DNA from: Balanoglossus misakiensis
Taxonomy: Eukaryota; Animalia; Hemichordata
DNA length: 64,000 nucleotides
Direction of reading: 5' to 3'
NCBI GenBank assembly: GCA_040954595.2
Contig: CM082587.2
Location: forward strand, 10,545,403 to 10,609,402
The position numbers and the translations under genes were made by a program. The notes beneath the pieces are model-generated. The model worked only from the letters and a program-made list of their open reading frames with translations. It made no database searches and had not been told where the DNA came from. Each line of letters opens with the position of its first letter. Within the stretch, counting starts at the first letter, position 1. Positions 11,110 through 63,852 of the stretch are shown here, piece by piece.

Positions 11110-11455
11110 CTGAATGTCAAGAACATCATCAATGTGGGATTTGTTGAGATGTGGTTACTACTGTAGAATATCGCAGGTGGTTGTTGGACACTTTGCGGTC
11201 TGGTCGCGTGACTTTGCCTTGTTAGCCGCCATGCATGTTGAACGCAAATTATACCATGATGCACTGCAGTTACCCTATACGCGAATAGGTCTATGCATGA
11301 ACTCTTTGAATAAATTTGCTTCCACGATACAGATGAGATTATTTTTCACGTTGCCTCATGCATGTATGGAAAGATACAGGTAAATTCCCAGTTTTCTGAT
11401 GGGCAACATTTCTACAGCTGTCTCGATTCTACTCTGGTAGTACTAAATAACTTAC

Positions 11456-11552
11456 CGTTGGTACATGAGTAACATTATTACACCAAGCACTAACACAGCC
11501 GCTAAACCTCCCGCAACACCACCAATGATGACAGCTGTGTCAACGGAGGAAT
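11456..11552 (-). CDS. Transmembrane exon
   Basis: DSSVDTAVIIGGVAGGLAAVLVLGVIMLLMYQR flanked by cag/gtaag. Confidence 0.9.
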
Positions 11553-28040: not shown

Positions 28041-28101
28041 TTCAGTTCAGTTCAGTTCAGTTCAGTTCATAAGGGACAAATATCTAAGATAATAAGGTCC
28101 C

Positions 28102-30999: not shown

Positions 31000-31025
31000 G
31001 TTATTTACACAATGAGCACCTCTTC

Positions 31026-31898: not shown

Positions 31899-32137
31899 CT
31901 TGAATCACGTCTTCCTACGAACTCTCAGTGTCGCTGGAACTTCCTTCAATTTTCCAAGCCAATCGTGTTCATACCCGCTCAAAAAACCTCCAAAGTTAAT
32001 CTTGAACACTTCATGAACCGAACCTTGTAGGTTATTTTCGTCCACAAGAAAAATACAACGCTTGTTGAAATAGAGATTTTCAAGCAACTTTCAACATGTA
32101 CGCTCAGCGAAGAGCGCCCTCACGGTTTGTCCTCACG

Positions 32138-39100: not shown

Positions 39101-40882
39101 TTTTTTTATTACTCTGGCCGCCGTAGTGTATAAGAATAACGTCATAATTCTTACGTGATTCTTGCAATTTTCATAAATTTTGTATATTTGACATTGTTTT
39201 TTATACTTCCGGTTTAGGAAGCTCTAAAACGTTTAGGGTCAGCGGGTTATAATTAGGGTAGGTCGGGTAATTGGAACAGCACATATTTTTTTATTTTGAC
39301 CTAATGAACATACCAATACAAACAGGTGCAGTGCCATTCCATTTAGCATTAGTGAGAAATGATGACTGTTCAGATGCATCCCTTCTTTTCCTCACAACTT
39401 CCACTGCGGCTGCTGTTGAAATAAGAAGAATTTTTTTTCTGTAAGTAATACTTAATTCATGCTTGTAACACACCGCTCATAGCATGCATTTACCTGATGA
39501 CCGTGCCTGTTTATGAAATACACATTACAGAGTCACGAATTTAGTCGATAATAGAAGAAAACTGCTGATTCAGCATTTTTCACCAATGGTTTGTCTATGG
39601 GCAAATTTTTTTTAATGCAATTTATCTCAAAATAGAGCAAGGTGACCCTTATATTTTAAGTGACCAATGAATTTATATTTACTGGACTGAGCTATGTAGA
39701 AAATTTTGTGACAATGACAATAGAAGAAGTTAGTTTTCTAGCAATTATCAATGTAATCCTATGGGAAAAAGACGGGTGCGTGCAGTTTTCCGGTTTATGT
39801 TCTGCGCGTACATCCTTAAAAGAAAAGAAGAGATATAAGCGCCACTTTAGTGTGAATAAAAATAATGATTTTATACATACTGCATCTGACACTCTGGAAG
39901 AGCTCATATCCTTCAGGACAACAGAATGTTGCATCATCTTCTTGAATTGGGTTTGCAGAAGATGATAGTTCTGGACAATTGTCTGAACTGTCAATGGCAA
40001 CCAAAACTGGAAATACACTTGGATGGTTGGTCAGATAAAAGATTAGTTGAAGACCACATCCCGACAATTCTGCATTGTCGTATCCAGGGCTCAATGGGTC
40101 TATGGGTTCAATCAGTAAGTTCAGCCCCACATCCATTAAAAGCTGCAGGTAATGAATATACAGTCATAAGCATTTGTTTTAAAAGATGTTATGTTTAATA
40201 TGCTTTATTATTATGCATCTGGCACCAAGAACAATAGAATTTAGCGTGTACTAAAAAGCCATACGGAACGGTACGTACGGAACGCGTGTTAAATACGCCT
40301 TAAGTTTCAAGGCGCCCCAACTCACCGTGTACAGGTATGTACTGTTATGCGGACGGTTTCAAGACACCCCCACTCCAACGCACGTAAACAAAAAAGAAAG
40401 ATGACTGCTCACTGTTTCAGCTGAGCAGTTTACGATCGATTGTATCGACAAAATTAAACATCGCATGGTTGTCACATTTGCATGAAAATATTCTCCCAAT
40501 ATGCATTTTTTCTTTGGATATGCAATCTGAAGAGCATGTGAGATAAAATGCTATGAAGTGAACAATTTGTTGAGTGTAATATTCTAGACTCCAGAAAGAG
40601 TCTACAAGATTTTCTGCAAGACTGAAAGAGACAGTTAGAGTACCCACCGAATTATCCGATAGCGAGGTGAGACTTATGGATAATGCGATATTGATTGTAA
40701 CCAGACCAGCAACAGGAACACATGCTCCTGATGGATCTTGAGACAGGAGTTGAGTTAAACCATTAACAAGTTGTGTTGTTATTTCTGTACCATAGTAGTT
40801 GCCACAGGATTGCTGGTCTGTAATCTGCCCACTACCATTATATGACACACTAAGCTGTGCACAGTAGTCAGGAACGTCACGG
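36142..40882 (-). CDS. Sushi/HYR/linker exons (~40625-40882, 39880-40142, 39313-39412, 38405-38634, 37932-38147, 37245-37464, 36142-36383)
   Basis: DTMPLDCPDTYV..VSYPAVSVVDNHG..VTVTATDYSGNQAQCQFDVSV (HYR); CPEWSLPTPEGG..ALSCQAGYDF..YTCIIGGTWLPHNYVPDC (Sushi); KWNGTAPVC. Confidence 0.8.
36771..37078. mobile_element. Palindromic non-autonomous repeat; partial copies ~12050-12178, 14388-14510, 63919-64000
   Basis: Inverted arms GACACTGTTTATGTTATTCTACATGTGGATATATAG.. / ..CTATATATCCACATGTAGAATAACATAAACTGTGTC. Confidence 0.75.
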
Positions 40883-41307: not shown

Positions 41308-42528
41308 TGGTAGTTGAGTTGGAGTTGGTAGGGTCGTAAGACCACCTGTTGTGGCTTTCAGAGTTGTTGCTGGTTTCGTAGTTGGTTTAGTACTGACATC
41401 ATGATATACTGTATAAATGAAATTGAATGAATACTTTATATTACACACTGGACATGGGTGTCTATATGATAAGAGTGGAAGAGTTATTTGACCAACCGTA
41501 TACAGATCAATTGCACTGAGCATTGTTATTGCCTCATTTGTGACATAGAGTCTGATTCAAACAACGATGATGATGGTAACTAACAATGTATAACTGTTTA
41601 ACTGTTTACATTGCAGGTATTATGATTTTTTTTTTTAATTGAAATTTTCACTGTACCCGTACATGAAGTTTCTATCAATAAAGCCAAATTTTCAATGTTT
41701 TATTATTCATAGTTTACTTTATCATAATAGGAAGTAAACCTACATTTCTTTGAAAAAAAAGTGAGGAGTGAATATGTTTTCTCCTTTCTTCCACCCCTCA
41801 CCCCCTAAAAATAATGGTGTCATCCAGGAGCTAGAGTCGTGTCAACTAAGTAAACAAGATCCATCCTTACTTTGGAGCTCATAATGCTGAAAAGTGTAGA
41901 AATTCGTATACATTCACCTTTTGATGTTAACAGATCATCGGTGCCTCAGTTGTATGTTTTCTTGTTGTTCTTCTTTGGGAAGTGGCAGTATCATCAGTTA
42001 TCATTTGTGTTTGCCATTCTGTGGTGCCTTCTACCGTTTGCCAATATTCTGTGGTGCCGTCCATTTTATTTGTTGTCAAAAGTGTCTCTGGTGTGGTGGC
42101 GTCCATTTTGTTTGTTGTCAACAATTTCTCTGGTGTGGTCCATGACTCTGTTGGCATCACATCACTTGCATCGTCATACTCTGAAGTCTGGTCTGCAGGA
42201 GTAATATCCACAGATTCTGCTGTTGACATCATTTCTGTTTTTGAGATCGGAGCAGATGTTGTCTTGTATGTACCCTCACCTTCTGTGCTTGACTGCTGAT
42301 CAGGCTTTTCAGAACTTGCCTCTACTGTTGTCACGACAACAGGCATGGTTACTGTAACCATAGTAACTGTTGTGGTTGACTTGCTTTTTCCAGTTGTCAC
42401 AGCCGGTATATTGTCTGTGTCCAACACAGTTGTCATTCTGGGCGAAGTTATGGCATATCCATCAGTTGAGATGCTTTTTTCTGTGCCTTCGGTGTAGGGA
42501 CTAGTTAAATATTCCAGCGTTGTTTCAT
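41308..42528 (-). CDS. Thr/Ser-rich mucin-like exons (41918-42528, ~41308-41408)
   Basis: T-rich ORFs; apparent 1-bp deletion near 41943 gives a premature TAA at 41927 just before the donor. Confidence 0.75.
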
Positions 42529-43075: not shown

Positions 43076-44599
43076 CTTCAAGCGTACTCTCAATTGTTGT
43101 AACTATTCCAAAGTCTGGAAGTGTAGTAACTTCAAGCTCATCATCCTCACAATGTCGAAATTGCTTGGAGGTGTCAATAATCTCATCAAACTCAAAGTCT
43201 GTAACCCTGTAGTTAATTTTACCAGACACCGAATAGACCTTGACATTGAGAGGGGCTTGTATATCACCAGAACCAATGGGTGGTTCAAATAAGTTATCAC
43301 TGAGTCTGTCTAGAGTAATCCAGGGACCAGTTGTGTGGACTTCCACAGTGGTGACAGGGTAACGATGATCCAATATTAATAAGCTGAATGATGCAGAAAT
43401 GCTCTCTGCAAACTAAATAAACAAATCAATCAATCAATATGCAGTACACTAAAAAGATGAACAACACAGTCCCTGGTTGGTCCTAATACTTTGAAATTTA
43501 GAGCAAGACTTACTGTAAAATGGGTTATTTTCGCGAGCATAAATTTTCGCAAAATACGCAAGATCTAAAAGAGAAGTGAAAATAAATGTCGTGTGATTTA
43601 ACGATGCAGTTAGTGAAATACAAGAACGCCAAAATTAATCCTCGCGTAACAGTTGCCTCTTTTGATATTGCGAAAATTTCCTGGCGTGAAAATTTCCCGT
43701 TTTACAGTATTTGCAACAAATCATTGTCAATGACCTAGTCCCCACTGGATCTTCCCTTGTCCAAATCAGTTGAGACTGGTTTGATTTCCAGGAGATCTAA
43801 ACTTCCAGTAAAGAAACAGATGAATACTCTTGACAATTTAAACTTCAATCTTACAAATACTTAAAAAAATGGCTAGGGAGGTTTCAAACAAGTTTGCCAA
43901 GATGTGAAAATTAAAGACAAGGGTATATTAATTAGTTAATAATTGTTTTGTTTCACAAACCTTGAACTTGATGGAGACATCTTCAGGACAGGCAATAACA
44001 GAGTAGGATACAAAAAGAGATGAAGGACTTTCACCATCTGACAAGATGTTGTAAGCATCCTCACTTAGAACCAGACCATCTTCATCAATCATGCAGTACG
44101 GGTACATGCACATGTCTGTTACCCGGACAACTACAGATACATCATTTGAACCAATCACGTTCAGGCATTGCCCACAAACCTGCAATCACAGAAACCAAAA
44201 TCTCCTTCTTTAGACAACACTGGAAGTACTAAAGCCAGCAGGGTTTCTTCAAATACAAAGCGATTATATCAATCTTAGCTGAGAAAATTAAAAAAAACAG
44301 CGCAACACACAAAAACGAACAAGATGAAATAAAATTATTCATAACAAAAATTGTTACAAATCACAATGACTCGAAATGACAGACCATCCGGTCAGTATTG
44401 ACATCACAGCCAATCATGTACATAGTCTTTCAAGAACTAACGTTATCTATACTTACATGTGAATCTTGAAAATTGGCCATACCAGCAACCATACTTGTGT
44501 AAAATGTTCCAAATGAACAGGTACCATCAGTTGGTGTCTCACTGTACTTCTCACAAGTTGCATTTACAAAAGTCTCAAAGGTACCACATTCTCTACTGA
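43076..44599 (-). CDS. Expansin-like module copy C (exons 44457-44599, 43961-44179, 43076-43412)
   Basis: D1 DPBB motifs GTCSFG, CGQCL, VVVRVTDMC, GLVLS, SYSVIAC; D2 CBM63-like DHRYPV..W..L.R..N.F..PLNVKVYS.SG..QF. Confidence 0.8.
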
Positions 44600-44978
44600 C
44601 TGCAACAACAACATATGTTAACATATATTCAATCAATATGTAATCTTGGTTTCAATCAGAATCACACAACTATAAAAAATAATTTATGCACAAAAATTGA
44701 GGGTGTAATGTTATATGTCATAAACGATACTGATTTTTGAAAAACAGGCGTATTTTTCTTCGCCTCCAAGGCTCCATGACTTGTACACTTCTGCTGAATT
44801 TCAGCCAAATAGTGTGCATTTGGACAGTTGCTGGCAATTGCAAACAATGTACAAGACTTTTTTTCATAATGTCTGAAAGGTCCATTTTTGTATCTTTTAG
44901 CTATTTTTATTCTGAGTGGCAACCATTAGCTGCCCAAGATGAGTTTACATGTGTAGTCTTTATACGTAGTATAATTAC

Positions 44979-45590
44979 CTGTTGTTACAACATGAGAAGG
45001 TGTCACTGGTTTTGTTGTTGATATTTTAGTTGAAAGTGGTTCCGAAGATTTCGATTGAAATTCAGTGCGTTCGGTGGTCAGTTCTTGGACACTAGTTGTA
45101 GGCAGGGATGTACTTGTATCTACATCTGTTACTATTCTTGTTTTGGATTCTGTTGACCTGATTTCATATTCTGTTGTCAAAGACTTTTGTGTGACTGGCT
45201 CAGCTGTTGTTGGGTTAGGCTTGATATCAGTAGTTGCTCTTTGAGCACTTGTTACATCTGTTGCAGTTGGGCCTATATCAGTTCTTGTTGCTGTTTCTGT
45301 GGTGTCTTCTTCATCTTCCATCGTTGAAAGTATCGTAGGATTGACGCTTGTTGTTGATAGAGTTGCAGTTGTGACAGTCTCGGATATTGCTGAGCTGACT
45401 TCATCCTGATCTGTGACTATAACATGGGTGGTCGAGTGGATACCAGTTGTGATCTCTTCAGATGAAACTGTTGTACCACTTGTCACTTCAGTTCTTGTAG
45501 ACCGACTGGTGAAGGAATCAGTCTCAGGCCCCCGGGTTGTAATGTACCCAGGCAATGTTGTTGGACCCTCCTGAGTAGATTGCATCTCGT
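44979..45590 (-). CDS. Mucin-like linker exon (copy B)
   Basis: Thr/Ser/Glu-rich ORF with cag/gtaat edges; paralog of 58026-58966. Confidence 0.8.
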
Positions 45591-46109
45591 CTGTTTTGGC
45601 AGGAAGGATACATGAAGAATAAGCGCTTCTGATTTCTCACAAACCATAGAATGTCCACTACTTGCATTTAATATACATTCATACCTACATTCATACCTAC
45701 ATTCATACATACATACATGCATGCATGCATCCATCCATCCATCCATACATACAAACATACTGTAAAACGGGTTATTTTCGCGAGCATTAAATTTTTCGTG
45801 AAATATGCGATAGCCAAAATACATGAAAATAATAAGTCACATAAAATATTTTTCAGAAATAACTATCCAGTAAAAATAAGAGATCATGAAAATTAATCCT
45901 CGCGAGACATTTGCCTCCATTGATATCATGAACAATTTCGTCACGAAAATGACCCGTTTAACAGTACATACATACAGATAGACAGACAGGCATACAGACA
46001 TACAGACAGACAGACTACCTTGATCCCATAAGGTCCCATAGTATAGTATATATGTATACTGGTATATACCAAATTGGACCTAAACTATGAAACTGAAACG
46101 CAATCTTAC

Positions 46110-49100
46110 CTTCAAGCGTACTCTCGATTGTTGTAACTATTCCAAAGTCTGGAAGTGTAGTAACTTCAAGCTCATCATCCTCACAATGTCGAAATTGCTT
46201 GGAGGTGTCAATAATCTCACCAAACTGAAACTCTCTAACCCTGTAGTTAATTTTACCAGACACCGAATAGACCTTGACATTGAGAGGGGCTTGTATATCA
46301 CCAGAACCAATGGGTGGTTCAAATAAGTTATCACTGAGTCTGTCTAGAGTAATCCAGGGACCAGTTGTGTGGACTTCCACAGTGGTGACACGGTAACGAT
46401 GATCCAATATTAACCCTAACGCTGTCGAGTCCGTAGCAGACCGCCCGATTTCCGGTGTGGGTAGAAGTCGAACGTTGGCGAGTGATGAATGACCTAATCG
46501 GTATGAATCGATATGATTCACCGACTCGCTGGAGTCTCTAGGCGTTTGCGTGCGCTTCGCTATAACGGGTTGTCTTTGAACTACCGTTTTGAGGGCAAAA
46601 TCTGTTAGGACAGGAAAGTCTCGACAGGGTTATTTGCCTTGAACTACAAAGAGCACACTATCCTTAGAGGCAAATTCCGCCGGTCATTCCGACCCTGGGG
46701 AGACCGTTTTTTATGTGTCCGCAAAAACGTAATTGACAGCGATGCATAGTTTTCCATAGCAGACGATTCCACAACGACATAGGGTATCAACCTTTTCGAT
46801 GGCCAGACGTGTCGGACGCACTCGTGGGTGCCTGTTTAGGAGAGTGCGTTTTGGGATCGACTCGGGAAAACATGACGATTTTTGCCGATGGTGCGAACCG
46901 ATGACCGACGTCTTGGCGTGCGTGCGTCGCAGGCCATATCTTTCGCGACCGACTCGTAGCCTACAATTACTCGTGAAAGAAAACTTGGTACGGACAGGCT
47001 TTGACGGGACTTGGCTTGCGTAGCCAGCGGCACAAGTGTGTAAAAACGACTGGGTGTGCATTTTGACGTAACGGCCGACGATGTAGACCGACTCGTCGTT
47101 TACACCCCGGTTCGCGACACATTGGATCGGACAGGTTTTGACGGGACTTGGCTTTGCGTAGCCAGCGGCACGAGTGTGTAAAAAGCGACTGGGTGTGCAT
47201 TTTGACGTAACGGCCGACGATGTAGACCGACTCGTCGTTTACACCCCGGTTCGCGACACATTGGATCGGACAGGTTTTGACGGGACCTCGGCTTTGCGTA
47301 GCCAGCGGCACAAGTGTGTAAAAAGCGACTGGGTGTGCATTTTGACGTAACGGCCGACGATGTAGACCAACTCGTCGTTTACACCCCGGTTCGCGACACA
47401 TTGGATCGGACAGGTTTTGACGGGACTTGGCTTTGCGTAGCCAGCGGCACGAGTGTGTAAAAAGCGACTGGGTGTGCATTTTGACGTAAACAAAGCCGAC
47501 GAATACGCTCTCGGTCCGGTGGGTTTTGCGTTACTCACCATTAGAGAACGACACAGTGTGCGGATGCCTGTAACTCAGGCTGGTGAATTGGACGGGTGTG
47601 TGCCGTAACGGTTCCTCGGTGCTGCGTGTTACCGAGGGGTATGTACAGACACGGGCGAAAGGCGTGCCTTGCATTCGCGTAACATAGGGGACATGAGTTC
47701 TGCTTAGGCCGCACAGATGCGAAATTTTAACGTCATGGTCGATCAATACTTTCTGTATTGTTACGCAAATTGCCGTTCCAGATTTCCATTTCTGGCGGGA
47801 ATTTTGAGGAGCCCCATAGGTCCGATTGCCTGCGGACATATTTTTGTGTCACGTGTTTGCGTACCTATATATTAGGCGTCCAATTAGATGGGAGAACGCC
47901 TGTCACAGGTTCATGTGCGACTGCTTATAAAAGGGGTGTTTCGTGGACAGTTTTGTCAGTACCACTACAGACCATGAGTTTGACGGACCGAAAGAGTTTT
48001 TTGAAGGCAACCCGAAAGATTCGGAACCCGGAATCCAGTGGAACGGGCAGCGATCGCTATGATGTAGACTCCCCTGTTAGGAAGGGAAAGGCCAAGAAAA
48101 AGAAGGCAAAGAAACGCCTTTTGAGCGTCAGATTTGAGGAGACGGAAAAGCCTGGCGGGAAACGTAAGCGCAAGTCCAGTCGACCCGTTGTCGACTCGGC
48201 CGATGAGACAGAAGCTCCACCCCGGAGTGATGAGGTGACTGCGGAAGCGGGCGAACCAGCCAGTACCCCGACAGAAGCTCCACCCAGGAGTGACGAGGTG
48301 ACTTCAGAGGCTGACTTACAATCCAGTAAGCAGCAGAAGTCTGGCGGGAAATGTAAGCGCAAGTCCGATCGACCCGTTGTCGACTCGGACGGTGAGACAG
48401 AAGCTCCACCCAGGAGTGATGAGGTGACTGCGAAGGCGGGCGAACCAGCCAGTACCCCGACAGAAGTTCCACGCGGGAGCGATCAGACGACCCCAGAGGC
48501 GGGCGAACCAGCCAGTTCCCCGCCAGTGACCCCATGTACGACAGATGATAGTCACGAGACCTCCCCAGAAGTGCCATCTGCTGCTCAGATGAGCCCTCAT
48601 CAGGCAGTCGCCTCGACTTCCACTGGGAAGGTGGGATCATCCAAGAAAGCAGTAAAAAAAAGGTGCGCTACAGTCCACCTGAGTTTGAGCCCGAAAAGAT
48701 TTTGGACGCCAAAACAGGCTTGTTCCGATATAGACGGCCTGATGATGACCTTGAGGAGGATGAGGGAAACGTGACGGACATTGATGAGGATGCGGCAGAG
48801 GACGATAACTTTTACGAGCTGTCATTTCCTGGTACTCCATCTGAGGAGTCCGACTCCGAGAATGAAGCCGTAATAGAAGAGGCCATACGGCAGGCCTCCA
48901 AGGATGGGGACGAGTGGCGTCTTTCGCAGCATGAGGACACTGAGATATTTTCCGAACCCCTGTTCGAGAAAGAGCGTGGACCCACGTTTACTATGGCAAC
49001 ACATGCACGGGAGTTGGAATACTTCCTGAAATTTGTATCACCGGACATGATATCTCTGGCGGTGAAGGAAACGAACAAATATGCGTCGTATCACCAGCAT

Positions 49101-52100
49101 TACATCGCAAAGAAAATCGACTCTGAGTGGCGAGCGACCAATTACAGAGAGATGCAAGCCTTCCTGGGCGTTGTCATCATCATGGGCATTGACCGCAAGC
49201 CTGCTGTGGGCGACCATTGGTCCAGCGACATTTTCCTGCATAATGTTGGCATTTCGTCAGTCATGACCCGTCAACGCTACCACAGGTTGATGCGGTATTT
49301 CCACTTGGCTGACCCCCAGAAGGATCCAAGACGAGACCCTGACCCGAACAGACGGTCACGCCGTTGTCAGGACGACCCAATGTATAAAGTAAACCCATGG
49401 ATGGAGCCCCTTGTAAACAGTTGCGTACACAGCTATCAGATGGGACAGGAAATCTCCATCGATGAAGGCATGGTGAAGTTCAAAGGACGTTCGAAATTCA
49501 AACAGAGGCTTCCCCACAAGCCAGACAGAGACGGCTTTAAGGTATTAGTCCATGGGCCAGACAGGAATTTGGTATCAGAAAGATGGACAAAGCCTCACAT
49601 GGTTTTTTGGAAAGGCCTATATCTCTAGATTATAAATTGGGGTGATAGCCCTGCCTATCGAGTAGCTTTCTGCATTTTTCCCTCAAAAACTAATGTAAGA
49701 ACATAAAAATTTCCGACCCAAATTTTGGGGGTAGGGGAACTTTAAATTGCTGTAACTCCAGCAAAACTAAAGCCAGAACAGTCATTTACCACTCAAATTG
49801 TGTGTTTTTTAGAACTCTACCAATATAATATATTTTGGTGGTAATTCGTTTTGAATTGAGGTCAATAGAGGTCAAAAGGTCATGAAATTTGGGTCATTCT
49901 GAAAATTTGTAGTATGACTATTTCTTGAACGATTTTTTTTAACTTAAGTCTTTAAATGTCATTTACAAGATAAAATACTTTCCCAGAATCTATTTCAAAC
50001 CAATAGGAAACCTTATTATTCATTTATGACCAGAAAAACACAAATAAAGAGAAACGACAGAAAGACATCCAATTTTCCACTCAGATTTAAGGGTAGGGGA
50101 AACTTAAGTTCTTGTAACTCCGGCAAAAATAAACCCAGAACAGTCATCTACCACTCAAATTGTGTTTTTTTTAGAACTCTACCAATATAATATATTTTGG
50201 TGGTAATTCGTTTTGAATTAAGGTCAATAGAGGTCAAAAGGTCATGAAATTTGGGTCATTCTGAACATTTGTAGTATGACTATTTCTTGAACGATTTTTT
50301 TGAACTTATAAGTCTTTAAATGTCATTTAGAAGATAAAATACTCTCCCAGAATCTATTTCAAACCAATAAAAAACCCTATTATTCAATTACGATCAGAAA
50401 AACACAAATACAGAGATACGGAAGAATGGCACAAGACTTCAGACCCTGATATTGGGGTAGGGGAAACTTAAGTAGTTGTAACTCCGGCAAAAATAAAGCC
50501 AGAAAAGTCATCTACCTCTCAAATTGTGTGTTTTTAGCACTCTAGCGATTGTATATGTATTTGTTGCAATTTTGTTTTGAATTTAGGTCAAAGAGGTCAA
50601 AAGATCACAAGATTTGGGTAATTTCGAAAAATTATGGTACGAACATTTCCCGCATTAATTTTTTAAACCCAAGTCTTCAAATGTCATTTATGAGATAAAA
50701 TACTCTACACGATTTTTTTTCAGACCAATTGAAGACCTTATTATTCAATTACAATCAGAAAAAAAATTAGTAGAGAAACGGGATAATAACAAACAATTTC
50801 CCACGGATTTTGGGGTAGGTTTGGCCATCTAACAGGTAAGTATACACCCAACTGATCATGCACATATGGTATTTAGGAGAACGGATGTGCAAATTTGTGA
50901 ACCTTTGCATGCTGCTCATGTGCACTATACTTGTATGATGATTCCTAACAATACTACGAGAAGGGGCCATTATAGCATTGTAGCTCTGATTGTGTATTAT
51001 TGTTGGATACCATCCTACAGTGTACAGGCACAGCAGATGACAAGCCAAGCAAAGGTTCAAAAATCTGCTTATTTTTTTTCCTCAACACAATATGAGCATG
51101 ATCTATTTATATTCAGGTCCAGTATAATAAATAAAAAAATGGCCTCGTCACTCTACAAGATCACGCCTCCTGGATAACTTTGCTGAATACAGCTAACATA
51201 CAAAAATACAAACCAATTCAGGACCTCGCCATTGGTTTGGGCGAAGGTGAAATTCCTCAGGTGCAGTACCATCGGAAATGCCGAAGTCTCTTTACGATGA
51301 AAAAGGCTCTTGAATCTATCCTTTCTAAAGAGCAGTCGTCATCAACTGAGGGAACCAATACACTGGAACGTAAAAAAGAGGTCGAGCATACAAGGGTCTC
51401 GGTGTGATCACATTTGCCTATTTTGCTCCACCACCAAGTACATGAAGGGAAGTAGGACAAGAGCTCCTTTAGTTCGTTGTCAGCAATTGCGTACGGACAA
51501 CACATTTAGGGAGGCAGCAACAAGAAAAATGACAGTAAAATTTGTGCACTTCTCAGTCGTGAGTTGGTTGCTGCTGAGGGTCACTATCATAGAAAGTGTT
51601 ATAGGGACTATACAAGGCCTGATATTCAAGCAGGTTCAAGTCATATGGAGGTTGATGAAAGTCAACATGATCAAGATACTAGTTATGAGGATGTCCTGCA
51701 AATTGCTCAAGAAGAGTTATTTTCTTTTATCAGAAATGATTTGTTCACAAACCCTGAGGTAGTTCCCCTGACTGATCTATCAAACAAGTTAGTTACCAAA
51801 ATGCTCCAACTTGGTGTTAAACAGGTTAACAATTCCACCAACAAAACTTGCAGCATACGCTAAATACGGAATTCAAAGGGACATTGATTTTTTTGAATGA
51901 TGTAAATGGTAGGGTGCTTGTATATCCGTCATCACTAGATATAGGTACTGTTGACCTGAAGTACAATGCTGTAAGAAAAGAACTTCTTGCAGCAGAAAAA
52001 CAATCACATGAAAGTATCATCACCACATCTGCTCTAATCCTGCTTACGCTGCTTGAATATCAGGCCTTGTATAGTCCATATAACACTTACTAAGATAGTG

Positions 52101-55100
52101 ACCCTCAGCAGCAACCAACTCAAAACTGAGAAGTGCACGAATTTTACTGTCATTTTTCTTGGTGCTGCCTCCCTAAATGTGTTGTCCGTACGCAATTGCT
52201 GACAACGAACTAAAGGAGCTCTTGTCCTACTTCCCTTCATGTACTTGGTGGTGGAGCAAAATAAGCAAATGTGATCACACCGACACCCTTGTATGCTCGA
52301 CCTCTTTTTTACGTTCCAGTGTATTGGTTCCCTCAGTTGATGACGACTGCTCTTTAGAAAGGATAGATTCAAGAGCCTTTTTCATCGTAAAGAGACTTCG
52401 GCATTTCCGATGGTACTGCACCTGAGGAATTTCACCTTCGCCCAAACCAATGGCGAGGTCCTGAATTGGTTTGTATTTTTGTATGTTAGCTGTATTCAGC
52501 AAAGCTATCCAGGAGGTGTGATCTTGTAGAGTAACGAGGCTTGCTTTATGGTCGGATTCATGACAGTCGAGAAAACAATCCCGTCAGCCCTCTTGTGTGG
52601 AATAGAAGATGGGCTTGCCATTTTTTATTTATTATACTGGACCTGAATATAAATAAATCATGCTCATATTGTGTTGAGGAAAAAAAATAAGCAGATTTTT
52701 GAACCTTTGCTTGGCTTGTCATCTGCTGTGCCTGTACACTGTAGAATGGTATCCAACAATAATACACAATCAGAGCTACAATGCTATAATGGCCCCTTCT
52801 CGTAGTATTGTTAGGAATCATCATACAAGTACAGTGCACATGAGCAGCATGCAAAGGTTCACAAATCTGCACATCCGTTCTCCTAAACACCATATGTGCA
52901 TGATCAGTTGGGTGTATACTTACCTGTTAGATGGCCAAACCTACCCCAAAATCCGTGGGAAATTGTTTGTTATTATCCCGTTTCTCTACTAATTTTTTCT
53001 GATTGTAATTGAATAACAAGATCTTCAATTGGTTCGGGAAAAAAATGGTGTAGAGTATTTTATCTCATAAATGACATTTGAAGACTTGGGTTTAAAAAAT
53101 TAATGCGGGAAATGTTCGTACCATAATTTTTCGAAATTACCCAAATCTTGTGATCTTTTGACCTCTTTGACCTAAATTCAGAACAAAATTGCAACAAATA
53201 CATATACAATCGCTAGAGTGCTAAAAAACACACAATTTGAGAGGTAGATGACTTTTCTGGCTTTATTTTTGCCGGAGTTACAACTACTTAAGTTTCCCCT
53301 ACCCCAATATCAGGGTCTGAAGTCTTGTGCCATTCTTCCGTATCTCTGTATTTGTGTTTTTCTGATCGTAATTGAATAATAGGGTTTTTTATTGGTTTGA
53401 AATAGATTCTGGGAGAGTATTGTATCTTCTAAATGACATTTAAAGACTTATAAGTTCAAAAAAATCGTTCAAGAAATAGTCATTCTACAAATGTTCAGAA
53501 TGACCCAAATTTCATGACCTTTTGACCTCTATTGGCCTTAATTCAAAACGAATTACCACCAAAAATATATTATATTGGTAGAGTTCTAAAAAACACACAA
53601 TTTGAGTGGTAGATGACTGTTCTGGGTTTATTTTTGCCGGAGTTACAAGAACTTAAGTTTCCCCTACCCTTAAATCTGAGTGGAAAATTGGATGCCTTTC
53701 TGTCGTTTCTCCTTATTTGTGTTTTTCTGGTCATAAATGAATAATAAGATTTTCTATTGGTTTGAAATACATTCTGGGAGAGTATTTTATCTTCTGAATG
53801 ACATTTAAAGACTTAAGTTCAAAACTATCGTTCAAGAAATAGTCATACTACAAATTTTCAGAATGACCCAAATTTCATGACCTTTTGACCTCTATTGACC
53901 TCAATTCAAAACGAATTACCACCAAAATATATTATATTGGTAGAGTTCTAAAAGACACACAATTTGAGTGGTAAATGACTGTTCTGGCTTTAGTTTTGCT
54001 GGAGATACAGCAATTTAAAGTTCCCCTACCCCCAAAATTTGGGTCGGAAATTTTTATGTTCTTACATTAGTTTTTGAGGGAAAAAATGCAGAAAGCTACT
54101 CGATAGGCAGGGCTATCACCCCAATTTATAATCTAGAGATATAGGCCTTTCCAAAAAACCACATGAGGCTTTGTCCATCTTTCTGATACCAATTCATGAA
54201 AAATCGGGTCCTGGCCCATGGACTATATGGCAGTTGGCGGACTCTGTCACATCCTATGTGGCAAACTTTGCTCCCTACCTGGGGGTGAAGTACCTTGACA
54301 GGAATGACGGGAAAAAACAGGAGAGGGGAGTGGTGAAAAGAATAACGATTGAACTTGTTCAGCCGTTCTGCGGGTACAACCACATCCTCTTCTGTGACAG
54401 CCTCTTCACAACTGTGTTAACTGCGAGAGAACTGATGGAGATGGGCATGTATATGGTTGGAAGCTTCAACCGACGTAACCGTCGGAGTATGCCGCCCATG
54501 CTTATTCCCCCCGGGAAAAAGAAGAAGCTTCCACTGAAGGTCGGTGAAATGAAGGCAGCCACCCGAGTCGATTGCCGAATCAACCTGGCAGCTTATCAGG
54601 ATAGCAATGCACAGGTGTTGATCCTGAACAACGTTTATCCACCAATTGACACGGAGACAGTTGGCAGTGGTGAGGAAGAGAGAAATGTGCCCCTGAGTTT
54701 GTCGAAGTACCGCGTCTTCATGGGAGGCGTTGACCGCGCTAACCAGAAGCGAAAATACTACCACTGTGGGCGAAAGAACAACCGCTGGTGGGTATACATG
54801 GCCTGGTACCTGATGGATGTAGCATTGACGAATGCTTACGTATGTTTCAAAGACCTTAACCCCCAGACCAAGGTGAAGCACAAGTTCTTCAACCTACGTG
54901 TTGGGAAGCAACTCATTGGCGGATTCACCAGTCGTGGTCAAGGCAACGTACGGGAAATAGAGCGCACAGTTACTGACAGCTCTTTCATTTTCCCTGGAAA
55001 CATACCCCAACACGTCGAAAGTAGATTACCTGGACGGCAGAAAACCTGCAAGCTATGCAGTAGGGAAGGCAAGAGGACCCTTTCTGGACGGCGTTCGGAG

Positions 55101-57685
55101 ACTGTCATGGGATGTGCGCTCTGCCAAGTGCATTTGCATCAAGGCGAATGCTTCGCCTCGTTCCACCACCATATGATGCTACGAGGAAAGAAGAGCATCG
55201 GGACACAGTTTCCAGAAGGAGATGTGCGAGTTCGGCAGCCGAGACGGGACAAACCGCTCCGGCGAAGTTCCAGAAACACGGACCATTCCTAAATTATTCC
55301 CCTCCCGAGAGGGTGACACGGGCTTCCGGTGAACCAGCCCTGGCATTTGTGCGGACTTTAGTCATTTTTTTCTGTGGACCCCCACTAAATTATGCCCTTG
55401 AGTAGGGCTACGAGGTGACCGAGCCTCATTTACGGACAATGAAACACGGACTGTGAGAAACGGACAGGTTACTTGCGGACACTGAAACACGGATTGTGAC
55501 ATGGGCTCGTCTTGAACGAGCCCCGTTTGCGCGGACTTTAGTCATTTTTTTCTGTGGACCCCCACTAAATTATGCCCTTGAGTAGGGCTACGAGGTGACC
55601 GAGCCTCATTTACGGACAATGAAACACGGACTGTGAGAAACGGACAGGTTACTTGCGGACACTGAAACACGGATTGTGACATGGGCTTGTCTTGAACGAG
55701 CCCCGTTGCGCGGACTTTAGTCATTTTTTTCTGTGGACCCCCACTAAATTATGCCCTTGAGTAGGGCTACGAGGTGACTGAGCCTCATTTACGGACAATG
55801 AAACACAGACTGTGAGAAACGGACAGGTTACTTGCAAACACTGAAACACGGATTGTATGATGTTACTGTAACGGTGCACGAATCACTCTTTTTTAGGAAA
55901 TAAAGTGCTATTTATGAGGCAACCTGTGGTGGTGTTAATCCCTCTAATATGACGCACAGTAACGGGGGTCTTGTGTAAATAGTCGTCCGGTTCAACACTC
56001 GCCCCTGGCCGAAATGGTGCAATGGGGCCTGCAGAACTTGCGGGTTACCTGTGACCGTGTCGGTACAACCCTGTACCGTAAAAAACTATAGCGTATTAAC
56101 ACCGTAATGAACGTCTGTCTACTGTGCGTAACTAACCAACGTGTCGTTATCACAACGTCCGTGTGTGTCTTGTGTGCGAGAATGAGTCGTTGTCAGGCGG
56201 CTGTAGAGCGGAACACTGTGCGCCAGTGTCCAGTCGTTCGCATTACGTGTCGAACTAACTCGTACCCTACAGGAAAGTGGCAGGGGAAGGGGTGCCCGAA
56301 CACCCCTGGCGGTACACCCTGGGTACCCTACTAATAACTGATGGTGTCGTTGTTGTGACGTGATGTGGCGTGTACTAACACACTAACTTTATTTTCGTAA
56401 AAGTAAGCCTCGAAACGACGTTTACAGACGCTCCCCTCCCAGGGGAACGAACCCGATGACCCCACAACTTTTACCCGGTTAATTGTTGTTTGAGGTCCCG
56501 CCGACACGGGACTGTGCCAAACTTGAAGTCTAGCACGTTCAAAAGCAGCTAAAATGACCCTCCAAAAACCCAATTTTCAGGCAAAAAGCCTGGTAATCCA
56601 GCGGGTGTAGAGGCGGTCTCGTAACGAGTCGGCGGCCCAACGGGTTTTGACCCCCGGTAGCAAGAGGGTTAATAAGCTGAATGATGCAGAAATGCTCTCT
56701 GCAAACTAAATAAACAAATCAATCAATCAATATGTGATACACTCACAAAATGAATGACACATACCAGGTTCACACAGAGAAAAATGTGAGACACTATTTG
56801 CCTATGATAAACTCAGAGCATTGTGTCCACACACACAAAGTTTGTGTATATGCGTTGAGGCTCGGCCCCATAGACAATCATGAGTTAAAAATACTGTTAA
56901 GAAGATGGCTTGTGAGGTTTCAAACAATTTTGCAGTGATGAGACAACTACAAGTGAATATTTACTTTTAAGTAGCAATTTAAGACAAGGGTATCTAAATT
57001 AGTTAATACTTGTGTTGTTTCACAAACCTTGAACTTGATAGAGACATCCTCAGGACAGGCAACAACTGAGTAGGATACAAGAAGAGATGAAGGACTTTCA
57101 CCATCTGACAAGATGTTGTAAGCATCCCCACTTAGAACCAGACCATCTTCATCAATCATGCAGTATGGGTACATGCACATGTCTGTTACCCGGACAACTA
57201 CAGATGCATCATTTGAACCAATCACGTTCAGGCATTGCCCACAAACCTGCAATCACACATGAAGGTATCAAAATGCATGTATACTATTTCAACAAACCAA
57301 CTAACTCCTTCTTTAGACAACACTGCAGGTTTTGGTTTAAGTGCTTAATCAAATTAAGCTGAGGAAATTTCAAAGAAAAACAGTGCAACACACAAACTTA
57401 GACAAACACGATGAAATAAAATTATTCATAACAAAAGTTGTTACAAATCACAATGACTCAAAATGAGAGACTATCTGGTCAGTATTGACATCACAGCCAA
57501 TCATGTACAAGGACTTTCAGAACTAACGTTATCTATACTTACATGTGAATCTTGAAAATTGGCCATACCAGCAACCATACTTGTGTAAAATGTTCCAAAT
57601 GAACAGGTACCATCAGTTGGTGTCTCACGGTACTTCTCACAAGTTGCGTTTACAAAAGTCTCAAAGGTATCACAATCTTTACTGA
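46110..57685 (-). CDS. Expansin-like module copy B (57543-57685, 57028-57246, 56669-56705 + 46110-46413), third exon split by the piggyBac
   Basis: Near-identical to copies A and C; removing 46414-56672 restores GATCCAATATTAATAAGCTG as in the paralogs. Confidence 0.85.
46992..47490. repeat. ~139-bp tandem repeat x~3.6 in the piggyBac left subterminal region
   Basis: GGACAGG..ACGGGACTTGGC.. recurs at 46992, 47129, 47268, 47408. Confidence 0.92.
49546..54225. mobile_element. Academ-like foldback element, ~2.1-kb inverted arms, 3-bp TSD (TAT)
   Basis: TAT|TAGTCCATGGGCCAG...CTGGCCCATGGACTA|TAT; arms 49546-51633 / 52049-54225; remnant peptides YHRKCRSLFT and LVAAEGHYHRKCYRDYTR. Superfamily call from TAG ends, 3-bp TSD and motif recall. 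Confidence 0.75.
49720..50820. repeat. ~363-bp subterminal tandem repeat x3 in the left arm (mirrored ~52940-54040)
   Basis: GGGTAGGGGAA(A)CTT..GTAACTCC recurs at ~49729, 50091, 50455. Confidence 0.85.
55346..55857. repeat. ~180-bp tandem repeat x~2.8 in the piggyBac right subterminal region
   Basis: GCGGACTTTAGTCATTTTTTTCTGTGGACCCCC at 55351, 55531, 55710. Confidence 0.92.
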
Positions 57686-58025
57686 CTGCAAAAACAACAA
57701 CACCAGTATTAAGATAAATTATTTAATATTCAATCAATATGTAATCTTGGGTTCAATCAAAATCACACAACCATAAAACTTAATTTATGCACAAAAATTG
57801 ATGGTTTCATGTTATATGTCATAAACAATACTGATTTTTGAAAAACAGGTGTATTTTTCTTCACCTCCATGACTTGTATACTTCTGCTGAATTTCAGCCA
57901 AATAGTGTGCATTTGGACAGTTGCTGGCAATTGCAACCAACGTGTACAAGACCTTTTTCTTTGTGGCAACCATTAGCTGCCCAAGATGAGTTTACATGCG
58001 TAGTTTTTACAAGTAGTATAATTAC

Positions 58026-58966
58026 CTGTTGTTACATCATGAGAAGGTGTCACTGGTTTTGTTGTTGATATTTTAGTTGTTGAAAGTGGTTCTGAAGATT
58101 TCGATTGAAATTCAGTGCGTTCGGTGGTCAGTTCTTTGACACTAGTTGTAGGCAGGGATGTACTTGTTTTGGATTCTGTTGACCTGATTTCATATTCTGT
58201 TGTCAAAGACTTTGTAACATCAGGTGTGACTGGCTCAGCTGTTGTAGGGTTAGGCTTGATGTCAGTTGTTCCTCTTTGAGCACTTTTGTTACATCTGTTG
58301 CAGTTGGGCCTATATCTGTTCTCTCTGTGGTTGTGTCTTCTTCATCTTCAACTGTTGAAAGTATGGTTGGATTGACACTTGCAGACTCTGTTGTTGATAT
58401 TTTAGATGAAAGTGGTTCTGAAGATTTCGATTGAAATTCGGTGCGTTTGGTGGTCAGTTCTTGGACACTAGTTGTAGGCAGGGATGTACTTGTATCTACA
58501 TCTGTTACTATTCTTGTCTTTGATTCTGTTGACCTGATTTCATATTCTGTAACATCAGGCGTGACTTCAGGCTCGACTGTTGTTGGGTTAGGCTTGATAT
58601 CAGTAGTTGCTCTTTCAGCACTTGTTACATCTGTTGCAGTTGGGCCTATATCAGTTCTTGATGTTGTTTCTGTGGTTGTGTCTTCTTCATCTTCAACTGT
58701 TGAAAGTATGGTTGGATTGACGCTTGTTGTTGACAGAGTTGACGTTGTGAAAGTCTCAGATATTGCTGAGCTGACTTCATCCTGATCTGTGACTATAACA
58801 TGGGTGGTCGAGTGGAGACCAGTTGTGATCTCTTCAGATGAAACTGTTGTACCACTTGTCACTTCAGTTCTTGTAGACCGACTGGTGAAGGAATCAGTCT
58901 CAGGCCCCCGGGTTGTAATGTACCCAGGCAATGTTGTTGGACCCTCCTGAGTAGATTGCATTTCAT
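58026..58966 (-). CDS. Mucin-like linker exon (copy A) with internal duplication and +2 frameshift
   Basis: CACTTTTGTTACATC at ~58281 vs CACTTGTTACATC in the paralogous repeats. Confidence 0.8.
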
Positions 58967-59204
58967 CTGTTTTGGCAGAAATGAAACACGAAGAAAATAA
59001 GCAAATGCAAAAATTAATCCTCGCATAATAACAATTGCCTCCATTGATATCGCAAACAAATTTCCCATCACGAAAATAACCCGTTTTACAGTACATACAT
59101 ACAGACAGACTAAACTGATCCCATAAGGTCCCATGGTATAGTATACATGTATACTGGTATATACCAAACGGGACCTAAACTATGAAACTGAAACACAATC
59201 TTAC

Positions 59205-60538
59205 CTTCAAGCGTACTCTCGATTGTTGTAACTATTCCAAAGTCTGGAAGTGTAGTAACTTCAAGCTCATCATCCTCACAATGTTGAAATTGCTTGGAGG
59301 TGTCAATAATCCCACCAAAATGAAACTCTCTAACCCTGTAGTTAATTTTACCAGACACCGAATAGACCTTGACATTGAGAGGGGCTTGTATATCACCAGA
59401 ACCAATGGGTGGTTCAAATAAGTTATCACTGAGTCTGTCTAGAGTAATCCAGGGACCAGTTGTGTGGACTTCCACAGTGGTGACAGGGTAACGATGATCC
59501 AATATTAATAAGCTGAATGATGCAGAAATGCTCTCTGCAAACTAAATCAACAAATCAATCAATCAAAATGTGGTACACTCAAAAAATGAATGACAGTCCC
59601 TAGTCGGTCATAATATTTTGAAATTAGAGCAACACATTATTGTCAATGTCCTAGTCCCCACTGGATCTGCCCTAGTCCAAATCAGTTGAGACTGGTTTGA
59701 TTTCCAAGAGATCTAAACTTCCAGTAAAGAAACAGATGGACCACTCCTGACAATTTTAACTTCAATCTTACAAATACTATTTAAAATGTGGCTAGTGAGG
59801 TTTAAAACAATTTTGCAGTGATGTGACAACTACAGGAAATATTTACTTTTAAGTAGCAATTAAAGAAAAGGGTATCTAAATTAGTGAATAATTGTGTTGT
59901 TTCACAAACCTTGAACTTGATAGAGACATCCTCAGGACAGGCAACAACTGAGTAGGATACAAGAAGAGATGAAGGACTTTCACCATCTGACAAGATGTTG
60001 TAAGCATCCTGACTTAGAACCAGACCATCTTCATCACTCATGCAGTACAGGTACATGCACATGTCTGTTACCCGGACAACTACAGATACATCATTTGAAC
60101 CAATCACGTTCAGGCATTGCCCGCAAACCTGCAATTACACAAACCAAAAAACTCCTTTAGACAACACTGGAAATACTACAGTATGCAGTTTTTTTCAAGT
60201 ACATTTAGTGATTAAATCAATCTTGGGTGAGAAATTTAAAAAAATACAGTGCAACACATAAAACAAGACAAAATAAAATCATTCATAACAGTGTTACAAA
60301 TCACAATGAGAAATTGGAGACAATCTGGTCAGTATTGACACTGGAGCAAAACATTTACCGGTACATAGACTTTCAAGAACTAACTTTATACTTACATGTG
60401 AATCTTGAAAATTGGCCATACCAGCAACCATACTTGTGTAGAATGTTCCAAATGAACAGGTACCATCAGTTGGTGTCTCAATGTATTTCTCACAAGTTGC
60501 GTTTACAAAAGTCTCAAAGGTTCCACAATCTCTACTGA
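59205..60538 (-). CDS. Expansin-like module copy A (exons 60396-60538, 59910-60128, 59205-59541)
   Basis: Same D1/D2 motifs; canonical splice sites with compatible phases. Confidence 0.82.
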
Positions 60539-61237: not shown

Positions 61238-62337
61238 CTGTTGATACATCATGAGAAGGTGTCACTGGTTTTGTTGTTGATATTTTAGTTGAAAGTGGTG
61301 CACCAATAGTTTCAGATGTTGTAAATTCTTTATCTGAATCTGTCGTTGGTTTTCTTTCAGTCACAGTGATTGCCTGCGTTGATGGCGCCTCATAACCTGC
61401 ATATGGAAATCAAGTCATTCTGCATTAAAATATGTGAGATTCCATAGATCTCACTAATGATTATTTAATATCAATTATTTAATATAACTATATGATAAAT
61501 AACTTGACTGGAATGGAATTTGGATTTTATTGCTACATTTTGCTACACAACCTATTACTGATGTACACACAGAACGTAAACTTGTAAACTGCGCAAATTC
61601 GTGCACATTTGTCTCTTCGCATGGGATTAGATTGATATAAACTCACTACTATTGTCATTTTCATGACAATTTAGCTCAGTTAAATGAAAATAAATTCATT
61701 GGTCAAATAAAATTGTATGGTCACCACAGTCTATTCAGAGATAAATATCGTTAAATGTTTTTGGGTGAAGAAATGCTGACTCAGCTGTTTGTTTGTTTTT
61801 CAACTACACAAGGCCATGACTAAATTCAAGCATGGTGACCCCTGTATTATACAGCTTTTCATTATGCTAACAAATGAGAAACCAAAAATCCACAATTAAA
61901 AGAAATGAGATACTTTCACTTCCACTGAGAGGACATCTGTAAAGTAAACTTGTCATATTGTTTTCAGATATTCAGTGGATGTTTGTACTTGACGTACCTG
62001 TTGCATCTCTTGTTTGAGCATCAGTGTGTACTCTTGCCGTCGTGGTTACCAAATCATCTGTGTGTACTTTTGTCGCCGTGGTTGCCACATCATCTGTGTG
62101 TACTTTTGCCGTTGTGGTTACCATGCCATCTGTCTGTGCTCTCTTGGTGGTTCTCATAACATCTGTGTCTGCAGCTGCTGTGGAGATTTTCATCCGCAAT
62201 GTGGTCACTTCTTCCTCTTCTGTTGCCGCTCTATCAGTTCCATCCATTTCTGTCGTCCCAAGCTCTGCAGTTGACATGTCTGTGACCGTTTCCGTTTCTA
62301 TGACAATGGAGGCAATAGAGGTTATGCTGATTGAATT
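61238..62337 (-). CDS. Mucin-like exons (61238-61396; 61998-~62337)
   Basis: Thr-rich, repeated TTTAKVHTDD units. Confidence 0.7.
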
Positions 62338-62506
62338 CTGTTTGTCAAGTTTCACTTCAACATTCAAATAGCTTTTAAAGCCTCTCTGTTGTTTTGGAAG
62401 CGGGCATTCTGAACCATTTCTCCATATATCACACTACATGAACATAGAAGTTATCACGGTACTGTTTCAGCACACCACGATGTTTATAACAACAGTATAT
62501 ACACAC

Positions 62507-63852
62507 CAGTAGTTGTAGTAGAAGGTGTTGTTGGCAACACAGTCACAACATCTCCTTCACACATCAAAGGGTTTGGATGGCTTGGTGTGAATCCATAGTC
62601 ACAACTGAATGACACTATAGAACCAATGTCGAAATCATTGCCATGTCTCTGACCGTTGACTGGTGTACCAGGATCTTGACATTCTCCTGAGGTCAAGAAG
62701 CAAAGTATCTTATCAATATTAAATCATCAACTCAGACAGAAGTCATTCCTTACAAAAACATTCTATATACATCATTCTACAGAATTCATTAGCCTTTTGA
62801 ATTTCTATATAAGTTTAAATAATTTCTATGGACATCTATATATTTGTATGTAGTTTTCGAAGTTGCTTAAAATGTTTTTCGGAAATAACGATGCAGTGAA
62901 ATACAAGAAAGTGAAAAAGTAGTAGTCGCAGTGTAACAGTCGCCTTTTTTGATATTGCGAAAATGTCTGGCCCAAAAATTCCCCATTTTACACTGTATTC
63001 AAACAACACATTGTGTGTGAATGTCATGAATTTCATCAGAGTATAACTATTATCAAACAGAAGTGATTGCTTCTCTGAAAGAAATATTCTTTTCTACGTT
63101 ACCCTGAGCAACACATCTTGGTCTGGTGCCATTCCATGTTCCATCTTCAGTGCAATATCTCCTGGTGTTACCAAGTGCTTCATATGCCATGTTACACTGG
63201 AGTGTAGCAACACTATCATACCAAGTGCCATCACTATTCCCATGAGCCATCTTCAATCGCAGTCAACAAACCACAGTCAACACCTAGAAATAATAATAGT
63301 GAGTTCTTATATAGCGCACATATTTTCTTTGAAGTATTGAAGCCTGTTTCTATTGAATTCTATAGAAATGATAGAATCTATAGAATGACAATTCAGAGTT
63401 TTGCCGTGGTGATCTTCGGTACAATATGCATTAAAGTTATGTAGCACTCTTTGATCAACAGTTGAAATTACAGCATGAGCTTGGAATCTTCCACGAGTGC
63501 ATCTGAAGAAGGGGACTACATGTTCCCGAAAGCTCATGCTGTAGTTTCAACTGTTGATCAAAGAGTGTTACATAACTTTAATGCGTATTGCAATCTATAG
63601 AATGCAAAAGAATTCTAAGGAATATAAGGTACAGCATTATTCATTCCTGTTACTTACGTTGACAGACAGGAGGAGAGGAATTCCATCGGTAATCACCATC
63701 TTGATTGCTGTAGGTACACACTCTGACATGGCTACCATATAAGTTGTATCCAATGTCACAACTATAGGTCACTTCACTCTGATAGTTGTAGTTGGGATCA
63801 TTGACCTCGTAGCTGCCATGATCAATACTCTCTGGTTCACTGCAGACAGCAG
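62507..63852 (-). CDS. Three Sushi/CCP exons (63658-63852, 63103-63283, 62507-62686)
   Basis: CSEPESIDHGSY..VTYSCDIGYNLYGSHVRVC..WNSSPPVC; VDCG..ATLQCNMAYEALGNTRRYCTEDGTWNGTRPRC (+1 frameshift at 63239-63241); ECQDPGTPVNG..VSFSCDYGF. Confidence 0.88.
63422..63590. repeat. Intronic palindrome/MITE-like inverted repeat
   Basis: CAATATGCATTAAAGTTATGTAGCACTCTTTGATCAACAGTTGAAATTACAGCATGAGCTT vs its near-perfect reverse complement 63529-63590. Confidence 0.75.

Follow-up and report, generated by a model that had tools for sequence, protein, structure and literature searches.

Can an expansin that has become part of an animal receptor still act as one, and where did it come from? The question is raised by a stretch of 64,000 nucleotides from the acorn worm Balanoglossus misakiensis (assembly GCA_040954595.2, contig CM082587.2, positions 10,545,403 to 10,609,402 of the forward strand), referred to here as the window, in whose own numbering positions are given. 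A first-pass annotation of this stretch had recognized three complete expansin-like modules, each with a DPBB and a CBM63 domain, inside an EGF/Sushi membrane protein, and had suggested an old horizontal acquisition that now serves as a tethered glycan- or microbe-binding array. It is nearly certain, from the analysis described here, that the modules are homologous to expansins and also belong to a receptor. Our preferred reading, to which we give a probability of about 0.6, is that they are three disarmed expansin-fold modules in an Uninflatable (Uif)-like receptor, held on Thr-rich stalks as non-catalytic contact modules.

Layout of the three modules

The three modules are located on the minus strand and span positions 43076–60538, exactly the limits of the first-pass annotation. 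Each is encoded by three exons, A (143 nt), B (219 nt) and C (337 nt), with phases 1-0-0-1, followed by an exon for a Thr-rich stalk, and this unit of four exons occurs three times. The spliced module has 232 codons, without a stop in any of the three copies, and the three proteins are 94–95% identical. The three exons thus form a symmetric cassette, and most of the flanking exons of the host gene also have phase 1. Identity between the units is 95–97% for the exons, compared with 82–94% for the introns. The ratio of nonsynonymous to synonymous differences per site (pN/pS) is 0.44–0.86 between modules, calculated from 13–14 nonsynonymous changes per pair.

In module 1, exon A (60396–60538, phase 1 to 0) encodes the N-terminal part of the DPBB domain (domain 1) and shows a weak profile match at positions 40–65. 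Exon B (59910–60128, phase 0 to 0) encodes the rest of this domain, with the CGxC motif and Asp71 kept and Val in place of Asp82 (EXLX1 numbering), and exon C (59205–59541, phase 0 to 1) encodes the CBM63-like domain 2. The first stalk exon (58026–58966) has a 2-nt frameshift in a run of A near 58285 in the window. Module 2 consists of exon A (57543–57685), exon B (57028–57246, from its profile match) and an exon C in two pieces, a 5′ piece that ends at a TTAA target (56669–56705), where a piggyBac element cuts it off, and a 3′ piece with a profile match (46110–46409). Its stalk exon (44979–45590) is in frame, phase 1 to 1. Module 3 has exon A at 44457–44599, exon B at 43961–44179 and exon C at 43076–43412, with its stalk exon at 41918–42528.

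The donor of this last exon C, at 43075, reads AT in the window and GT in four of four public runs (two samples, four runs and one contig per run, with a depth of only 2.5 in two of the runs). The third stalk exon has a frameshift at 41937 in the window and is in frame in three of the four runs, the fourth having no coverage there. The motifs and the Thr-rich stalk exons between modules are present as the first-pass annotation had quoted them, and most of the exons are indeed bounded by GT-AG, the AT donor being the exception. Its count of three complete modules holds for modules 1 and 3; the split in exon C of module 2 had been missed, as had those in two other coding exons of the gene.

Relationship to expansins

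The modules contain both domains of a two-domain expansin (EXLX) in the expected order, DPBB and CBM63 directly after it. The NCBIfam profile of EXLX1 (NF041144), in the two modules scanned, matches exon B over positions 39–109 (E values of 5.5e-7 in module 1 and 1.1e-6 in module 3) and exon C over positions 119–193 (E values of 1.7e-5 and 5.6e-6), and exon A alone has no match in NCBIfam or Pfam. The curated cut-off of NF041144 is 100 bits, and single exons score 24–29 bits. The ortholog from Saccoglossus kowalevskii (see below) scores 221.7 bits, and because this is the sum over three module stretches, the score per module is probably below 100 bits. Pfam DPBB_1 is above its cut-off for the complete ortholog (31 bits) and below it for single exons of the window (E value of 0.0024 for exon B of module 1). 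In the Protein Data Bank (PDB), all three matches of exon C up to an E value of 10 are expansins (YoaJ at 0.0043 for module 1), and the best match of exon B is a fungal expansin (7wvr, EXLX1; E value of 0.4 for module 3).

The complete modules, spliced by script, were compared with profiles of two sets of bacterial expansins, alongside 501 controls (500 shuffles and one reversal). With the profile of 111 mostly Firmicutes sequences, drawn from 115 loci, the modules score 40–49 bits and the best control 6.6. With that of 120 Cys-rich expansins of the myxobacterial type, they score 81–85 bits and the best control 4.7. The latter match covers positions 40–227, of which 40–138 are in domain 1, and runs across both introns. 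Because the queries used to collect both sets were derived from the modules or resembled them, the scores are a test of homology and say nothing on the donor.

When exon C is modelled with the help of an expansin alignment, the predicted local distance difference test (pLDDT) score is 75, and the model is partly circular as evidence; folding of the single sequence gives a pLDDT of only 34. The top 12 Foldseek rows and the top 6 VIA rows for this model are all expansin domain 2 or pollen allergens. The best structural match has a Z score of 8.5 and a root mean square deviation of 3.8 for 85 aligned residues, and no Foldseek row reached an E value of 0.001. The homology to EXLX1/YoaJ that had been proposed for both domains is borne out by NF041144, the bacterial profiles and the PDB matches, which fall in the right order.

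The receptor gene and its ortholog

A search of 1.84 billion representative proteins with exon C finds four, all of them from hemichordates. The best match is XP_077862127.1 of Saccoglossus, a protein of 4,825 residues with three matched stretches at 47% identity. Word-index searches, which covered proteins of up to 2,000 residues and so had the ortholog outside their range, gave no match among 162 candidates for exon C and 42 for exon B. In metagenome scans, none of the 598 and 389 pattern matches for the two exons was confirmed.

Residues 1004–4798 of XP_077862127.1 are colinear with the entire window. The window starts at about residue 1004 and covers the receptor only from the later Sushi domains onward; the N-terminus of the Saccoglossus protein contains a C-type lectin domain, an LDLa domain and three CUB domains. 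The ortholog also has three expansin modules on Thr-rich stalks (30–57% Thr and Ser), and in its gene model this layout is unbroken. On the strength of this predicted RefSeq model, we reject the reading that the module exons belong to a separate gene. Contamination is ruled out by the introns, by the GC content at third codon positions (0.35 in the modules and 0.34 in eight host exons) and by the ortholog in a second species. The first-pass annotation had been correct on both of these points.

Within the window, the upstream exons of the same gene (61238–63852, minus strand) comprise three Sushi exons and two Thr-rich exons, with a frameshift near 63235, and the gene runs past the window end. 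The downstream exons (10849–41410, minus strand), assigned from Pfam, translation and the ortholog, encode an HYR domain, a Sushi-like domain, three Ephrin_rec_like domains, an EGF array, a LamG/pentraxin domain, a second HYR domain, a second Sushi-like domain, four Ephrin_rec_like domains and two EGF domains. A transmembrane exon (about 11455–11550), a cytoplasmic tail and a stop near 10849 complete the gene. As judged from this predicted domain order, the modules belong to an Uninflatable-like single-pass membrane receptor.

Basic RRKR/RKRR stretches are found in the ectodomain at 39340–39412 and 15600–15620, and also in the ortholog. They are possible furin sites, one of them just downstream of the block of expansin modules and stalks, which could be shed.

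Loss of the functional residues

In EXLX1, Asp82 is needed for loosening, and Trp125, Trp126 and Tyr157 bind cellulose (PMC5072189). Position 82 is Val in all six receptor modules (three in the window and three in Saccoglossus); Asp82 is found in 120 of the 120 myxobacterial-type and 109 of the 111 mostly Firmicutes expansins. Positions 125 and 157 are non-aromatic in the receptor modules in every alignment, with Asp or Asn at 157 in all six. Positions 125 and 126 are Ser, Pro, Ala or a gap in all six in one alignment, and position 126 of the window modules becomes Phe under another gap placement, which hinges on one gap. Asp71 is kept in all six, as are His134 and the core cysteines. In the strand that carries Thr12 and Thr14 in EXLX1, Thr is at position 12 in no alignment; the register is unstable here and the posterior low, with Glu in all six modules in one alignment and Lys in another. 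Glu may sit at this position, that of the hydrogen-bond partner of Asp82. The loss of Asp82 and the aromatic triad is common to both species and is therefore older than their split.

These residues bear directly on the tethered array of the first-pass annotation, taken here as one in which the modules would still bind and loosen cellulose or microbial wall glycans. Such an array would agree with the full two-domain fold, the six retained Asp71 residues, the acidic residue that may lie near Thr12, and a host that filter-feeds and has a mucus-rich pharynx (PMC4729200). However, the change of Asp82 to Val and the disappearance of the aromatic platform affect every receptor module, while among the free-standing hemichordate expansins there are modules that retain all key residues as well as degenerate ones. 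The second module of Ptychodera XP_070533744.1, for example, keeps T12, D71, D82, K119, Y125, W126 and Y157. In addition, the placement of Glu at position 12 does not hold between alignments. An array that binds cellulose or loosens walls thus lacks support, the loosening and binding residues being lost in six of six modules, and we consider this reading unlikely. It seems similarly improbable that a microbially derived wall-loosener has turned into a sensing module, which would recognize wall polymers of microbes or algae at a remodelled site, with an acid near position 12 replacing Asp82, and would report particle capture at a filter-feeding epithelium. If this were true, it would be the first case of an animal receptor with an expansin fold in its ectodomain.

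Origin of the modules

The relationships were examined in a tree (LG+G4, 229 columns) of 34 rows, 13 hemichordate modules and 21 bacterial expansins, with the hemichordates as the sole eukaryotes. The hemichordate and bacterial rows are parted by a branch with support of 99/97. The six receptor modules are monophyletic (97/94), with the pair of degenerate modules from Saccoglossus XP_006812521.1 as their sister group (99/97). An earlier tree of 27 rows, with only bacteria besides the modules, placed the modules on a long branch and was uninformative on the donor. The modules of the window form a trio (100/99), as do those of the Saccoglossus receptor (97/91). Pairing of the two first modules across species is rejected (approximately unbiased test, p-AU of 0.0047, for a group named after the tree had been seen). 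The repeats have therefore likely been homogenised or re-duplicated in each lineage.

A direct transfer from a myxobacterium-like donor into this lineage, followed by intronisation inside the receptor, would explain why the best bacterial matches are Cys-rich, acidic expansins of the myxobacterial type, at 30–34% identity. That set, however, was obtained with a query modelled on the modules, and the free-standing hemichordate expansins are nearer in the tree. Expansin-like genes are also reported from other animals. A yoaJ expansin-like gene in the sponge Spongilla has its best matches in the rotifer Rotaria and in Daphnia (PMC10176882), an Expansin-YoaJ is annotated in the anemone Exaiptasia and fused to an invertebrate chitin-binding domain (PMC6626399), and expansin-like genes annotated in Oikopleura and bivalves are flagged as unconfirmed (10.1101/637728). 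We regard a direct transfer as highly improbable. The modules group with free-standing hemichordate expansins, outside the sampled bacteria, and several animal phyla have expansin-like genes; any transfer is thus older than this gene, and the horizontal acquisition that had been proposed for it finds no support here, although a microbial origin of the animal family as a whole would be compatible with the tree.

The immediate source is likely exon shuffling from a resident family of animal expansins. The exon shuffling, which the first-pass annotation had also assumed, is supported by the exon phases, the cassette being symmetric (1-1) and most exons of the gene having phase 1.

The 667 residues of Saccoglossus XP_006812521.1 comprise two degenerate expansin modules, a stretch rich in Thr and a hydrophobic segment at the C-terminus, and the protein may be a second, small membrane-anchored one with the expansin fold. 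The secreted-type tandem expansins of Ptychodera and Saccoglossus have a second module that is less degenerate than the first, and that of Ptychodera XP_070533744.1 is, by its residues, the best candidate for an active animal expansin.

A proposed role for the modules

In the preferred reading, one three-exon phase 1-1 cassette of a resident expansin paralogue, by then already degenerate, would have been shuffled into the receptor gene before Balanoglossus and Saccoglossus split, with the repeats homogenised or re-duplicated afterwards within each lineage. The protein would carry three disulfide-bonded expansin folds on Thr-rich, probably O-glycosylated stalks, and this block would sit between the N-terminal head of lectin, CUB and Sushi domains and the EGF-rich stem. 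By analogy with Drosophila Uif, an apical surface protein of fly epithelia (PMC12867482), the modules may bind a partner in the apical matrix or mucus, glycan or protein, through a surface other than that for cellulose.

The modules may instead be ligand-free structural beads, disulfide-bonded spacers that resist proteases and make a mucin stalk stiffer or longer. In favor of such beads are the lost binding residues, the moderate conservation between species (41–44% identity) and the joint turnover of the repeats and their stalks. On the other hand, both species have exactly three full two-domain modules with non-core residues in common (for example, Val at position 82 and the LDHRYP stretch), and the exons are more conserved than the introns. 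We find the spacer reading doubtful and retain that of contact modules.

Several observations weigh against the contact modules. The pN/pS of 0.86 between modules 1 and 2 is close to neutral. The cross-species identity of the modules is below that of most flanking EGF and Ephrin_rec_like exons (about 45–68%), which is also consistent with a spacer under weak constraint. For a Stigmatella expansin whose position 82 is Leu, it has been proposed that function is retained. The grouping of the degenerate modules in the tree could be due to long-branch attraction. Splicing in Balanoglossus is predicted from splice signals and a RefSeq model that is itself a prediction, and the likeness to Uif is one of architecture alone, with the FA58C domains of the fly protein absent.

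State of the copy in the window

The piggyBac element in exon C of module 2 (46414–56668, plus strand; 10,255 bp) accounts for 10.3 of the 17.5 kb of the module region. It has CCCT ends, a duplicated TTAA (46410–46413 and 56669–56672) and transposase in two pieces, 48552–49545 and 54226–55289 (PF13843, E values of 3.6e-38 and 6.5e-22). Read-through from the acceptor of exon C into the element meets a stop after 42 codons. A rescue of module 2 by a cryptic phase-0 acceptor at the end of the element was rejected; there are two in-phase AG sites, and both score poorly. Nested in the transposase is a near-perfect fold-back element (49546–54225, strand not assigned; 4,680 bp) with TAG...CTA ends and a 3-bp TAT duplication, which we take to be Academ-like; it has short open reading frame remnants and no Pfam match.

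Two other elements split coding exons of the receptor. A full-length long interspersed nuclear element (LINE; 28037–32137, minus strand), with a PHD ORF1 of 292 residues, an endonuclease-reverse transcriptase frame of 979 residues and a pentanucleotide tail, lies in an EGF exon, at a site corresponding to residue 3543 where the Saccoglossus ortholog is uninterrupted. A Crypton-type element with DUF3504 and a tyrosine recombinase (16253–18670, minus strand) lies in a Sushi-like exon. The junctions of all three insertions are clean, and the insertions look real.

The window copy is probably a null allele, because the piggyBac, LINE and Crypton elements each split a coding exon. The stop-free modules, the conservation of exons over introns and the pN/pS of 0.44–0.86 argue against long-standing decay. 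The smaller defects, the AT donor and the frameshifts near 63235, 58285, 41937 and 24080, may be assembly errors or belong to a privately decayed haplotype. Intron sequence, too, is not identical between the window and the public runs, with differences at a few sites, one of them a 13-nt indel.

All three large transposons lie within coding exons; as these account for about a third of the remaining gene span, the rough chance of this is about 0.03, and it fits a dead allele that collects insertions. In one public run, contigs join the piggyBac ends (46406 and 56672) to other flanks, and the depth at the ends is several times that of the neighboring sequence; the element therefore belongs to a multi-copy family. 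Positions 1–4000 of the window have a GC content of about 0.50, compared with 0.35–0.40 elsewhere, have no open frame of 100 codons and are probably a repeat.

Comparison with known systems

Animal expansins are already known from annotation, and the architecture described here is in RefSeq as XP_077862127.1, named 'uncharacterized'. What appears to be new is the fusion into a Uif-like receptor with a shared loss of working residues. Targeted literature searches did not find an expansin fused into such a receptor, although the metazoan expansin table of 10.1101/637728 may list hemichordate entries; nor was the fusion found in the text passages available or in two of the four supplementary files of the hemichordate genome paper (PMC4729200). 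For the few expansins annotated in animals, a 2019 survey left the choice between real genes and contamination open (10.1101/637728). An intron-split expansin fold in a developmental-type receptor, common to two species, settles this point for hemichordates, and provides an example of a lineage-specific insert in the ectodomain of an Uninflatable-like receptor. Animal modules that are intact, half-degenerate or fully degenerate form a natural set for studying the role of the fold once Asp82 and the aromatic surface are gone.

The modules resemble Bacillus subtilis EXLX1/YoaJ and other microbial EXLX proteins (PDB 2bh0, 7wvr, 9ms4, 9ms5 and 4jcw; NF041144) in the order of DPBB and CBM63, colinear over nearly the whole profile, and in Asp71 and His134, with a cysteine pattern as in the myxobacterial type. 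They differ in the Val for Asp82, the loss of W125/W126/Y157 and an identity of only 19–34%, and in that three copies, each split by two introns, form part of a membrane protein with about 4,800 residues. The expansins of other animals (Spongilla yoaJ, Exaiptasia, bivalves and Oikopleura) likewise have expansin-like domains in aquatic invertebrates; by their descriptions they are secreted or small, and none is reported inside an EGF/Sushi receptor.

For the host protein, the first-pass annotation had named both SVEP1 and Uif as models. SVEP1/polydom is secreted, with an N-terminal VWA domain and a long C-terminal Sushi array. The window gene differs in its transmembrane exon and tail, and no VWA domain is listed in the ortholog. 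Drosophila Uif (PMC3340373 and PMC12867482) is a large single-pass protein with a C-type lectin domain, three CUB domains, Sushi, HYR and EGF domains, and the Saccoglossus ortholog has the same domains and a single transmembrane segment. The fly protein has 3,557 residues, two FA58C and three HYR domains and no reported expansin or long Thr stalks. By Pfam, the Saccoglossus protein has two HYR stretches, and none of its 14 families at E values up to 0.01 is FA58C, in a scan that also missed the lectin and LDLa domains.

The closest relatives are the free-standing tandem expansins of hemichordates (Saccoglossus APU50764.1, 'expansin-yoaj protein-like protein 170', XP_006812919.2 and XP_006812521.1; Ptychodera XP_070533744.1), which share the tandem arrangement and are nearest in the tree. 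XP_006812521.1 is also similar in its two degenerate modules, Thr-rich stretch and hydrophobic C-terminal segment. In contrast to the receptor, these proteins are small and without EGF, Sushi or CUB domains, and some of their modules keep the full set of canonical residues.

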